NCBI RefSeq assembly: GCF_003334785.1
Contig: NZ_QOWV01000019.1
Direction: 5' to 3' (one strand)
Length of the DNA stretch: 64,000 nucleotides
From: Escherichia coli
GTDB lineage: Bacteria; Pseudomonadota; Gammaproteobacteria; Enterobacterales; Enterobacteriaceae
Part shown: positions 8,430 to 10,497 of the stretch, piece by piece
Numbering within the stretch: position 1 is the stretch's first letter
Layout of the letters: each line of letters begins with the position of its first letter
Notes under the pieces: generated by a model
What the model was told of the DNA's origin: nothing
Database searches by the model: none
The model's input: the letters and a program-made list of their open reading frames with translations, nothing else
Translations under genes and position numbers: made by a program

Positions 8430-8628
8430 GAGGTTGCCCCGTATTCAGTGTCGCTGATTTGTATTGTCTGAAGTTGTTTTTACGTTAAGTTGATGCAGAT
8501 CAATTAATACGATACCTGCGTCATAATTGATTATTTGACGTGGTTTGATGGCCTCCACGCACGTTGTGATATGTAGATGATAATCATTATCACTTTACGG
8601 GTCCTTTCCGGTGATCCGACAGGTTACG

Positions 8629-8640
8629 GGGCGGCGACCT
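8629..8640. other. Lambda-type cos site: cosN 12-nt cohesive-end sequence GGGCGGCGACCT, with lambda right-end (cosQ side) and cosB flanks from ~8480 to ~8810
   Basis: Sequence 8470-8817 reads as the lambda right end joined to the lambda left end (…CCGACAGGTTACG|GGGCGGCGACCTCGCGGGTTTTCGCTATTTATGAAAATTTTCCGG…) with only scattered substitutions, recalled from the lambda genome. Confidence 0.8.
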
Positions 8641-8817
8641 CGCGGGTTTTCGCTATTTATGAAAATTTTCCGGTTTAAGGTGTTTCCGTTCTTCTTCGTC
8701 GTAACTTAATGTTTTTATTTAAAATACCCCCTGAAAAGAAAGGAAACGACAGGTGCTGAAAGCGGGCTTTTTGGCCTTTGTCGTTTCCTTTCTCTGTTTT
8801 TGTCCGTGGAATGAACA

Positions 8818-9363
8818 ATGGAAGTCAACAAAAAGCAGCTGGCTGACATTTTCGGTGCGAGTATCCGTACCATTCAGAACTGGCAGGAACAGGGAATGCC
8901 CGTTCTGCGAGGCGGTGGCAAGGGTAATGAGGTGCTTTATGATTCTGCCGCCGTCATAAAATGGTATGCCGAAAGGGATGCTGAAATTGAGAACGAAAAG
9001 CTGCGCCGGGAAGTTGAAGAACTGCGGCAGGCCAGCGAGACAGATCTCCAGCCAGGGACTATTGAGTACGAACGCCATCGACTTACGCGTGCGCAGGCCG
9101 ACGCACAGGAGCTGAAAAATGCCAGAGACTCCGCTGAAGTGGTGGAAACCGCATTCTGTACTTTCGTGCTGTCGCGGATCGCAGGTGAAATTGCCAGTAT
9201 TCTCGACGGGATCCCCCTGTCGGTGCAGCGGCGTTTTCCGGAACTGGAAAACCGACATGTTGATTTCCTGAAACGGGATATCATCAAAGCCATGAACAAA
9301 GCAGCCGCGCTGGATGAACTGATAACGGGGCGCACTTTGACGGTGACCAGAGCGGCACGGTGA
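8818..9363 (+). CDS. nohQ: Terminase small subunit Nu1 homolog; lambda-like for ~169 residues, last ~12 residues replaced at a deletion junction
   Basis: ORF track 181 aa; MEVNKKQLADIFGASIRTIQNWQEQGMPVLRGGGKGNEVLYDSAAVIKWYAERD... matches lambda Nu1 until ...AALDELI then diverges. Confidence 0.75.
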   Translation: MEVNKKQLADIFGASIRTIQNWQEQGMPVLRGGGKGNEVLYDSAAVIKWYAERDAEIENEKLRREVEELRQASETDLQPGTIEYERHRLTRAQADAQELKNARDSAEVVETAFCTFVLSRIAGEIASILDGIPLSVQRRFPELENRHVDFLKRDIIKAMNKAAALDELITGRTLTVTRAAR

Positions 9364-9922
9364 ATGGTGTCACGCCGCCAGCAGTTCAGCACCTGACCGC
9401 AGAAGTCACCGCAGACAGCGGGGAATACCAGGTGCTGGCGCGCTGGGACACGCCGAAGGTGGTGAAGGGGGTGAGCTTTATGCTTCGCCTGACCGTGGCA
9501 GCGGACGACGGCAGTGAGCGGTTGGTCAGCACGGCCCGGACGACGGAAACCACATATCGCTTCACGCAGCTGGCGCTGGGAAATTACAGGCTGACAGTCC
9601 GGGCGGTAAATGCATGGGGACAGCCGGTGCACATACCCATTCGATGACATTTGTTTCAGGTGGTTCCAGTGGTGCTCCGGGAAGTGGATCACCTGATTAT
9701 TCTAAATACAGTGTTAACACTTCTTCTGCAGGCGCTCATACGCACTCTGTATCGGGTACTGCTGCAAGCGCAGGTGCACACGCACATACTGTCGGTATTG
9801 GTGCTCATACGCACTCCGTTGCGATTGGTTCACATGGACATACCATCACCGTTAACGCTGCTGGTAACGCGGAAAACACCGTCAAAAACATCGCATTTAA
9901 CTATATTGTGAGGCTTGCGTAA
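9360..9922 (+). pseudogene. stfQ: Tail-fibre remnant: J-like central fragment (9360-~9625) fused out of frame to a side-tail-fibre C-terminus (~9625-9922)
   Basis: Two overlapping ORF-track frames 9360..9647 and 9614..9922; first matches lambda J internal sequence (...[13 protein letters not shown]), second carries GAHTHS/GAHAHT repeats and ends ...[11 protein letters not shown] like lambda stf. Confidence 0.6.
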
Positions 9923-10497
9923 TGGCATTCAGAATGAGTGAACAACCACGGACCATAAAAATTTATAATCTGCTGGCCGGAACTAATGAATTTATTGGTG
10001 AAGGTGACGCATATATTCCGCCTCATACAGGTCTGCCAGCAAACAGTACCGATATTGCACCGCCAGATATTCCGGCAGGCTTCGTGGCTGTTTTCAACAG
10101 TGATGAGGCATCGTGGCATCTCGTTGAAGATCATCGGGGTAAAACGGTTTATGACGTGGCATCAGGGGACGCGTTATTTATTTCTGAACTCGGTCCGTTA
10201 CCGGAAAATGTTACCTGGTTATCGCCGGGAGGGGAATATCAGAAGTGGAACGGCACAGCCTGGGTGAAGGATACGGAAGCAGAAAAACTGTTCCGGATCC
10301 GGGAGGCGGAAGAAACAAAAAACAGCCTGATGCAGATAGCCAGTGAGCATATAGCGCCGCTTCAGGATGCTGTGGATCTGGAGATCGCAACGGAGGAAGA
10401 AACCTTGTTGCTGGAAGCCTGGAAAAAGTATCGGGTGTTGCTGAACCGTGTTGATACATCAACTGCACCGGATATTGAATGGCCAGCACTGCCGTAG
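9922..10497 (+). CDS. tfaQ: Tail fibre assembly protein, 191 aa
   Basis: ORF track; start overlaps stf remnant stop; Tfa family sequence. Confidence 0.85.

Follow-up and report, generated by a model that had tools for sequence, protein, structure and literature searches.

A decayed lambda-like late region from cos to the tail-fibre genes, very probably a non-K-12 allele of the cryptic prophage Qin, in Escherichia coli

Genes at the locus and identity of the prophage

The window analysed here is a stretch of 64,000 nucleotides of Escherichia coli DNA. Comparison with the lambda genome (NC_001416) by blastn gave four matching blocks: window 8267-8628 corresponds to lambda 48141-48502 (98.3% identity), 8629-9330 to lambda 1-703 (98.2%), 9321-9627 to lambda 17302-17608, within J (91.9%), and 9773-10487 to lambda 21824-22538, comprising the C-terminus of stf together with tfa (93.4%). 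An initial annotation, made from the sequence alone, had read ∼8470-9325 as lambda DNA running across the cohesive end, and window 8267-9324 is indeed collinear with the circularised lambda map at 98% identity; all the features it had claimed lie within a few bases of where it placed them. The features are as follows.

8196-8429, minus strand: ynfO (YlcI/YnfO family), an ORF matching NCBIfam YlcI_YnfO_N (E = 3e-9) and named ynfO in identical genomes
8267-8628, plus strand: lambda right-end homologue (first block above), including cosQ and the left half of cosN
8629-8640, plus strand: cosN, 12-nt cohesive-end sequence GGGCGGCGACCT, an exact match to lambda and the sole copy in 64 kb
8677-8797, plus strand: cosB (R3, I1, R2, R1) by alignment to lambda, with all three R repeats present
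8818-9363, plus strand: nohA, an ORF (annotated nohA) of Nu1/TerS codons 1-169, 12 out-of-frame codons from the J fragment (TGRTLTVTRAAR) and a stop
9321-9324, plus strand: junction 1, GATA common to Nu1 (lambda 694-697) and J (lambda 17302-17305), placed from parent and product sequences
9325-9624, plus strand: internal fragment of the tail-tip gene J, codons ∼600-701 (third block above), a pseudogene in its own frame
9621-9624, plus strand: junction 2, CAGC common to J (about lambda 17604-17607) and to stf ∼100 codons before its stop
9625-9922, plus strand: C-terminal fragment of stf, ∼100 amino acids with GAHTHS/GAHAHT/SHGHT repeats, matching PHROG tail-fibre families at their C-terminal ends
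9922-10497, plus strand: tfaQ, an intact, annotated tail fibre assembly gene of 191 amino acids (phrog_105, E = 6e-100; 93% identity to lambda tfa)
10595-11185, minus strand: pinQ, an annotated serine DNA invertase homologue matching NCBIfam serine recombinase/invertase models
12521-13804, plus strand: ydfJ', a transporter gene cut short by the Qin insertion (ORF; annotated as lacking its N-terminus; K-12 Qin boundaries)
13893-15353: ydfI, an ORF in the window

We consider it very probable (roughly 0.92) that window 8267-10497 belongs to the cryptic lambdoid prophage Qin, of which it forms the end running from cos to the tail-fibre genes, and that this Qin sits in ydfJ as a non-K-12 allele with a decayed late region. 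The truncated ydfJ' marks the right end of the prophage and is followed by ydfI-ydfZ-rspR-ydfG-dcp, as seen in the window ORFs, in identical annotated genomes and in the K-12 reference. The genes themselves stand in the order characteristic of Qin, which begins with relBE: relE-hokD-rem-ydfU-ydfT-cspF-cspB-essQ-rrrQ-rzpQ-cspI-ydfO-ynfO-nohA-(stf)-tfaQ-pinQ-ydfK-ydfJ'-ydfI, with pinQ convergent with tfaQ. The annotated Qin of strain FORC 064 matches the window at 99.96-99.98% identity over 16 kb, except for a 300-bp gap in ydfT. This evidence comes from the right part of Qin, its left half (int, immunity) falling outside the window. In the same region ynfO is the Qin gene immediately left of the lambda right-end homology.

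The Qin of K-12 MG1655 (b1543-b1579, 20.5 kb, with intQ an IS2-disrupted pseudogene) shares the ydfJ site and the gene order, and is 99.2% identical to the window from ydfO to Nu1 nt 703 and 97.7% identical from stf codon ∼-64 to ydfK. The two differ between these stretches. In K-12, Nu1/A nt 719 passes straight into the final 320 codons of stfQ, a stf allele that differs from the window's, without a J fragment, whereas the window passes from nt 697 into J and retains only ∼100 codons of another stf allele, so that the nohA-stfQ joint of K-12 is absent from it and homology to K-12 stfQ starts only at window 9731. The joint in the window is an allelic variant of Qin, not a different element. 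Each of the two alleles has sequence missing from the other and therefore neither can be derived from the other, for which reason we rejected descent in either direction.

Qin has been on record since 1983 (Espion et al., as cited in PMC8835842), and a literature search on Qin prophage, nohA, cos and qin111 found little beyond that original citation. NCBI PGAP labels in identical genomes already cover nohA, the J and stf pseudogenes, tfaQ and pinQ at this locus; NCBIfam, for its part, holds no model by name for NohA, the stf fragment or TfaQ.

The cos site, nohA and the two joints

A 25-mer, GGTTACGGGGCGGCGACCTCGCGGG, comprising cosN and its flanking symmetry, occurs exactly as in lambda at 8622-8646, with a chance expectation of 0. 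We take cosQ to be the GGGTCCT at window 8599-8605, corresponding to lambda 48473-48479. cosQ is a conserved 7-bp site (PMC4669245), and the alignment shows no difference from lambda in the 60 nt upstream of the nick. Relative to lambda, cosB carries five differences (53 C>T, 73 A>G, 102 T>C, deletion of 137, and 151 C>T), all of which also occur, by alignment, in the viable (isolated or inducible) phages 2H10 and phiSTEC1575-Stx2k. With the R sites placed by the repeated CGTTTCC motifs, the first of these changes falls on the first base of R3 and might make TerS bind less well in certain backgrounds. The cos of K-12 Qin differs from that of the window at ∼seven cosB positions. Judged at the level of sequence, the site is thus intact and of lambda specificity, as the initial annotation held in calling it complete, its cosQ and cosN being those of lambda and its three R repeats present.

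The Nu1 reading frame follows lambda Nu1 to codon 169 (…ALDELI), the point at which it had been expected to end, after which residues 170-181 are swapped for 12 foreign residues; it is a small-terminase gene without its last 12 codons. The Pfam Phage_Nu1 domain (PF07471) is nevertheless covered in full (1-164 of 164, E = 4e-101), and NohA, its N-terminal wHTH present, matches PDB 1J9I (DNA-binding domain, E = 1e-39) and the TerS structure 6HN7. The C-terminal region of TerS is where TerL binds (PMC9026076; PMC4669245), and NohA has neither that tail nor an adjacent terL, blastn against lambda having found no gene A (terL) sequence after Nu1. NohA is complete in its DNA-binding and oligomerisation parts, with its extreme C-terminal tail replaced.

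The abrupt passage from Nu1 into an internal segment of J takes place at junction 1, which reads …CTGATA/ACGGGG…, its GATA lying inside a 9/10 imperfect match, GATA[C/A]CGGGG, and which corresponds to the loss of ∼16.6 kb of lambda-equivalent DNA (A to codon 599 of J). The J piece, with the sequence …DNGAHFDGDQSGTVNGVTPPAVQHLTAEV…, matches NCBIfam lambda_TipJ at positions 602-699 (E = 2e-51) and is named by PGAP 'phage tail tip protein J-related protein, incomplete'; its presence had been recognised from the outset, although its length is 300-304 nt rather than the ∼290 nt first given. At junction 2, J passes into stf as …GGACAGC/CGGTGCAC…, with boundaries set by the match ends and by the parents (L011, with intact J, and L010, with intact stf and 100% identical from window 9621). 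The stf fragment is 88.7% identical in nucleotide sequence to the T4-like gp37 of phage AV118. Each of Nu1, J and stf has a reading frame different from the other two, and therefore both switches are out of frame; the proposed succession of J, an out-of-frame stf C-terminus with GAHTHS repeats and an intact tfa is borne out by these frames, the PHROG matches and the 191-residue TfaQ. Alignment had been suggested as the way to place the joints and look for microhomology, and it placed both, with GATA at junction 1 and CAGC at junction 2. These are two illegitimate short-homology joints at which the virion genes are gone, in keeping with the view that at least two deletions removed the head and tail block.

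The scar interpretation would fail if Nu1 and the J-like segment were continuous in some intact phage. Among 50,697 phage records none joins Nu1 to the J piece, none of the 159 matching phage records (0/159) holds both sides of junction 1, and a pattern scan of viral contigs in IMG/VR returned other joints and not junction 1. On these negative results for junction 1 in phage records and viral contigs, a natural mosaic of a live phage was rejected. In complete E. coli genomes, junction 1 is present in 52 of 5426 and junction 2 in 91, each with the joint 100% identical, making this a minority allele; because these are independent complete genomes carrying identical joints, an assembly artefact is excluded as well. 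Nothing was found that speaks against the scar interpretation.

An ancestral lambda-like late region was stripped of its virion genes by RecA-independent deletions at short homologies. One, at GATA, fused Nu1 nt 697, directly or in steps, with J nt 17302 and took out A, W, B, C, D, E, the F genes, Z through I and J as far as codon 599; another, at CAGC, fused J at codon ∼701 with the final ∼100 codons of stf and took out the receptor-binding end of J, lom and most of stf. What remains is cos, a clipped TerS (NohA), two dead fragments (J and stf) and intact tfaQ and pinQ, a block presumably unable to make or fill capsids. The scar is genuine but ordinary, and of little importance as a discovery, Qin having long been known and its pieces already annotated. 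It does provide a clean nucleotide-level example of a prophage in which virion genes were lost while cos, lysis and tail-fibre-assembly pieces were kept and are still recombinable with incoming phages.

Related alleles and recurrent endpoints

Less-deleted Qin alleles in F829, FDAARGOS_1337 and strain 300709 have the same junction 2 and 99.7-100% identical J sequence, and in strain 300709 remnants of A, W, B, C, G, T, H and J survive. The lineage therefore once had the genes that the window lacks. These alleles raise the possibility, to which we would give somewhat less than even odds, that the window allele arose by successive nested deletions, from a 300709-type through an FDAARGOS_1337-type and an F829-type to the present arrangement, every new deletion starting from the joint already there. 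The four alleles fall into a strictly nested order with junction 2 and a near-identical J sequence in common, the step from F829 to the window would use an 8-nt repeat (GATAACGG), and no Qin was seen in which junction 2 accompanies a Nu1-J block that is still wholly intact. However, intact Nu1 (GATACCGGGG) gives the right-hand partner a better match than the preceding joint does in two of the three steps, and leftover bases of an earlier partner were never seen beside CTGATA. The same left end, moreover, is found in the prophage DLP12 and in a Nu1 of only 78% identity, which cannot belong to one series.

That left end recurs widely. At least 10 different deletion alleles, with different downstream partners, break Nu1 at the same point (…CTGATA/, …GAACTGATA/, lambda 697), and the break is seen in Qin, in DLP12 and in IMG/VR prophage contigs, even where Nu1 is only 78% identical to lambda. 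Other recurrent endpoints lie at lambda 955/956, 2268 and 719/720 and at two right-hand sites, and 14 of the 20 mapped joints cross over at TA, a dinucleotide making up 3% of the sequence. The sample of alleles consists of loci in which Nu1 codons 1-169 are complete. No insertion-type interruption by an IS or MITE was found at the recurrent TA sites in 96 loci. Inspection by eye against consensus sequences gave no Pin/Gin-type crossover, lambda Int core, IS10 end, Chi, type IIS/III restriction or RusA (^CC) site at the Nu1 breakpoint that fitted all partners.

DLP12 (E. coli K-12, B and C) has a paralogous ylcI/ynfO-cos-Nu1 block followed by tail-fibre remnants (the cos-nohD region). In E. coli C and B the break in its Nu1 falls on the same nucleotides and leads into J nt 16135, a joint that one Qin allele also has. 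Unlike Qin, DLP12 lies near appY and ompT (E. coli C) or near the cus operon (BLR(DE3)) and has a different early region. Divergence of 2.6-4.7% separates its flanks from those of the Qin copy and extends all the way to the joint, leaving recent gene conversion between DLP12 and Qin unsupported as the origin of the shared 699>J16135 joint.

It is conceivable, if rather unlikely, that decay of lambdoid late regions in E. coli is non-random, reflecting either a site-preferring deletion process or selection for cos together with a clipped TerS. If so, it could mean an unrecognised deletion process, with a break or template switch at TA steps beside G+C-rich blocks, or repeated selection for a module of cos and C-terminally clipped TerS acting on superinfecting phages. 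The graded series of Qin deletion alleles and their strikingly reused endpoints may be of use to research on prophage domestication.

Selection would make cos-nohA a retained unit in which the clipped TerS serves as a decoy or poison subunit, or as a packaging redirector like the Rpp of phage-inducible chromosomal islands (PICIs), against superinfecting phages. We think this improbable. The truncation does remove only the extreme C-terminus, in the region that TerL binds, sparing the whole Pfam Nu1 domain (1-164); the 10 or more alleles in two prophages that end at the same Nu1 nucleotide keep codons 1-169 open, and the layout of cos and terS' parallels that of cos and rpp in PICIs. Nucleotide-exact recurrence is, however, expected of a mechanistic hotspot and not of selection on a protein, and an end at 697 is not required, since other alleles break elsewhere (lambda 719/720, 955/956, 1024, 1650 and 2268) with parts of gpA left behind. 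Moreover, loss of Nu1 could not be scored in a sample limited to complete codons 1-169, and at 98% identity to live phages the gene is too close to gauge purifying selection since the deletion.

Possible packaging from the Qin cos

The initial annotation regarded the element as potentially packageable, in trans only, by a lambdoid helper. This stands in part, in that a helper terminase could probably cut the Qin cos, and falls for normal packaging of the element from cos to cos, there being a single cosN in 64 kb. Searching the window, including the 55 kb downstream in the packaging direction, gave no second cosN, and cos-to-cos packaging in situ is therefore impossible; one-ended packaging of the chromosome or recombination with a helper are the plausible outcomes.

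It is, in our estimation, very improbable that Qin, or part of it, is a cos-packaged satellite that depends on a lambdoid helper to mobilise it as a unit. Its cos is by sequence intact and of lambda specificity, and PICIs provide examples of cos-bearing islands packaged by lambda-like helpers (PMC6739421, PMC9026076). The module of the EcCICFT073 type resembles the window in placing a lambda-like cosQ/cosN beside a TerS-like wHTH gene without the TerL-binding C-terminus (PMC9026076), Rpp proteins being 30-40 C-terminal residues shorter (PMC9026076). PICIs, however, have their own cosB, a distinct Rpp family, and int, regulation and replication genes, and are excised and packaged as units, whereas the window has a lambda-type cosB, that of the helper itself, with Nu1 proper (98% identical) in place of an rpp gene and nothing else of a PICI. 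Against a satellite there is also the single cos. Lambda packages roughly 38-51 kb between two cos sites, and K-12 Qin, at 20.5 kb and with intQ disrupted by IS2, is well below that size. Finally, 52-91 genomes have these joints at one and the same chromosomal site, a pattern that indicates inheritance by descent and not transfer.

Another parallel is offered by lambda 'doc' particles, one-cos products of in situ packaging of a non-excised, induced and otherwise complete prophage. The likeness is that of a chromosomal cos with terminase in the cell, packaging that proceeds from cosB into the neighbouring bacterial DNA and meets no second cos; in the window, unlike doc, terminase and capsids would need a superinfecting phage as their source.

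The activities of the Qin block are likely to be passive only. A terminase of lambda specificity from a superinfecting phage would bind cosB and nick cosN, and the break would stimulate recombination between phage and prophage; one-ended packaging would start rightwards into tfaQ-pinQ-ydfJ-ydfI, without a downstream cos to finish. The stf/tfa homology would in addition make the block a recombination donor for lambda-like phages. De Paepe et al. (2014) measured recombination of lambda with Qin stf/tfa and, in DLP12, a stimulation of recombination by cos (PMC3945230). The DLP12 of K-12 retains a full nu1 and part of A, and supplied functional nu1 to lambda experimentally (PMC3945230).

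Structure of the scar and its identity

We read window positions 8000-11500 directly, listed all ORFs and aligned the sequence by blastn to lambda (NC_001416), which yielded four collinear blocks:

8267-8628: lambda 48141-48502 (98.3%)
8629-9330: lambda 1-703 (98.2%)
9321-9627: lambda 17302-17608, within gene J (91.9%)
9773-10487: lambda 21824-22538, the end of stf and tfa (93.4%)

Since the first two blocks abut precisely at the cohesive-end site, what the window shows is lambda cos in its annealed form. The ORF at 8818-9363 follows lambda Nu1 up to codon 169 (…KAAALDELI), after which come 12 foreign residues and a stop. 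Positions 602-699 of the NCBIfam tail-tip J model are matched by the piece that follows, and the last piece, which carries GAHTHS/GAHAHT repeats, is a side-tail-fibre C-terminus of ~100 residues. Each of Nu1, J and stf lies in a reading frame of its own, and tfaQ is intact (191 aa). The block alignment thus confirmed the structure described in the initial annotation and supported its interpretation as a deletion scar.

Neighbouring ORFs, together with annotated genomes that match at 100%, identify the locus as the cryptic prophage Qin, which sits in ydfJ. Genes here run in the order relE, hokD, rem, ydfU, ydfT, cspF, cspB, essQ, rrrQ, rzpQ, cspI, ydfO, ynfO, nohA, J', stf', tfaQ, pinQ, ydfK, ydfJ' and ydfI, and the corresponding K-12 reference region is labelled 'cryptic prophage Qin'. 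The feature was therefore already known: Qin was defined in 1983 by Espion et al. (as cited in PMC8835842), and the NCBI PGAP annotation pipeline already calls the J and stf pieces incomplete pseudogenes. The element is a minority allele of this known prophage.

The stf tip at 9625-9800 is an allele other than K-12 stfQ upstream of 9731. Its nearest DNA relative (88.7%) is a gp37-like fibre tip of the T4-like phages AV116 and AV118, a case in which lambdoid and T-even phages have exchanged fibre tips. Within 10498-11260, the serine invertase gene pinQ is convergent with tfaQ, and because the window has only one stf/tfa cassette, the usual invertible tail-fibre switch seems cut down to one orientation.

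The two joints and related Qin alleles

Alignment to lambda placed both joints of the scar in short homology, as the initial annotation had suggested looking for. The Nu1/J product (junction 1; the slash marks the joint) reads …GAACTGATA/ACGGGGCGC…, its left parent being lambda Nu1 (…GAACTGATACCGGGGTTG…) and its right parent J (…GTGGATAACGGGGCGC…). The crossover lies within GATA (9321-9324), part of a 9/10 imperfect match, GATA[C/A]CGGGG. The J/stf product (junction 2) reads …GGGGACAGC/CGGTGCACATACC…, with a crossover within CAGC (9621-9624); its parents are an intact J of another strain (…GGGGACAGCAGGGCG…) and an intact prophage stf (…GCTTCAGCCGGTGCACATACC…), the latter 100% identical to the window from 9621 on. 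Both are classic illegitimate joints at short homology.

K-12 Qin matches the window up to Nu1 nt 703 and resumes at 9731. Unlike the window it has no J piece, running on through lambda nt 719 and then directly into another stf allele, of which it has the final 320 codons (joint …GAATATA/ACCGCGCTGAC…). As each allele retains DNA missing from the other, the two are independent deletion products. Among 5426 complete E. coli genomes, junction 1 is present in 52 and junction 2 in 91, while the K-12 joint and a related joint at the same stf site together account for 365.

Several Qin alleles that share junction 2, with J 99.7-100% identical to the window, retain more DNA. Nu1 is joined to J nt 16726 in F829, to J nt 16135 in FDAARGOS_1337 and to gene A nt 2177 in strain 300709. 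The last (locus L012, 995-6050) keeps A', W, B', C', G', T, H' and J 15668-17608, remnants divided by three more short-homology deletions. These longer alleles show that the lineage once had the morphogenesis genes and lost them by deletion. The remnants in 300709 were counted as five separate pieces, and an IS66-family element lies in its cosB at ~lambda nt 137, so that its cos was inactivated by another route.

The cos site and NohA

No base differs from lambda in the 60 nt that precede the nick, which include cosQ, or in the first 52 nt at the left end, which comprise cosN and the spacer. Within cosB, differences occur at lambda positions 53, 73, 102, 137 (deleted) and 151, and phages 2H10, an isolate, and phiSTEC1575-Stx2k share all five variants. 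The cos site thus appears complete by sequence. Initiation of packaging needs cosN and cosB, and termination needs cosQ and cosN of a downstream cos (PMC4669245). The window contains a single cosN, with no second copy found in 55 kb in the packaging direction, so a helper terminase could begin but not complete a normal package. The earlier proposal that the element is packageable in trans consequently fails for a normal package and survives in a weaker form, in which one-ended packaging of chromosomal DNA could start from this cos. Classical lambda doc particles are an example of such packaging. The site may also stimulate recombination, as measured for the cos of DLP12 by De Paepe et al., who in addition measured lambda recombination with Qin stf/tfa (PMC3945230).

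NohA, the product of the 8818-9363 ORF, spans the whole Pfam Phage_Nu1 model (1-164/164) and the solved DNA-binding domain, its sole loss being the last 12 residues; it is a DNA-binding TerS that probably oligomerises. In lambda TerS the C-terminal 30-40 residues bind TerL (PMC9026076; PMC4669245). With C-terminal residues missing and gene A absent after nohA, NohA is predicted to be unable, by itself, to form part of a working terminase. The cos-nohA layout resembles the cos-rpp module of phage-inducible chromosomal islands (PICIs), but the locus is not a PICI, since its cosB is of the lambda type and the encoded protein is simply Nu1.

Reuse of deletion end points

The Nu1 breakpoint of the window (9307-9324, …GCGCTGGATGAACTGATA/) is the same nucleotide in at least 10 deletion alleles, which come from Qin, from DLP12 and from prophages on contigs in IMG/VR, a viral collection (viral_contigs). 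It was seen in comparison loci L004, L005, L012-L016, L018, L020-L022, L044, L074 and L080. In the loci examined, ten different partner sequences follow …GGATGAACTGATA.

Partners joined to the Nu1 breakpoint (lambda nt)
J 17302: window
J 16726
J 16486: DLP12, strain AH21
J 16135: one Qin allele, and DLP12 of E. coli C and B
J 15685
A 2177
Z 8063
near lom/stf: contig with Nu1 only 78% identical to lambda
two non-lambda sequences

In every partner TA immediately precedes the retained base, and downstream of the crossover most partners imperfectly resemble the CCGGGG of intact Nu1. The alleles might have originated as a single nested series of deletions, but the shared TA and the CCGGGG-like similarity favour repeated independent events on intact Nu1. 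The shared breakpoint reflects either a hotspot or selection.

The 699>16135 joint occurs in Qin of FDAARGOS_1337 (L005 3908-3935) and in DLP12 of E. coli C (L013 9032-9060) and BLR(DE3) (L014); the laboratory strains E. coli B and C both carry it in DLP12. Recent gene conversion between Qin and DLP12 does not explain the sharing, because the flanks are diverged as far as the joint: the copies differ by 2.6% to its left and by 4.7% to its right, where the first mismatches lie within 25 nt.

End-point reuse, the only part of this analysis that might reward systematic study, extends further. Among 80 Nu1 loci sampled irrespective of the sequence after Nu1, lambda 955/956 (three partners), 2268 (two) and 719/720 (two) recur as left ends, and two right-hand sites are each joined to two different left ends. 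No inserted element was found at the recurrent joint sites. Reused end points include the stf site TA/ACCGCGCTGAC and a J site near 17170. We mapped 20 distinct lambda-to-lambda joints in loci L004-L105 and at window 9321-9324, of which 14 have a TA crossover, often GATA. TA makes up 3.0% of dinucleotides in lambda 1-22600, and the excess is significant even against a 10% null (binomial P < 1e-9), with alleles that come partly from a directed search and are phylogenetically non-independent, and with lambda standing in for the actual parents.

A TA joint (…CAGGTA/AGGGGTATG…) also lies at ~2598-2604 within ydfT/quuQ (ORF 2218-2694), a Q-like antiterminator gene, where 300 bp (100 codons, in frame) are missing relative to strain FORC 064; the K-12 annotation has ydfT at its full length of 753 nt.
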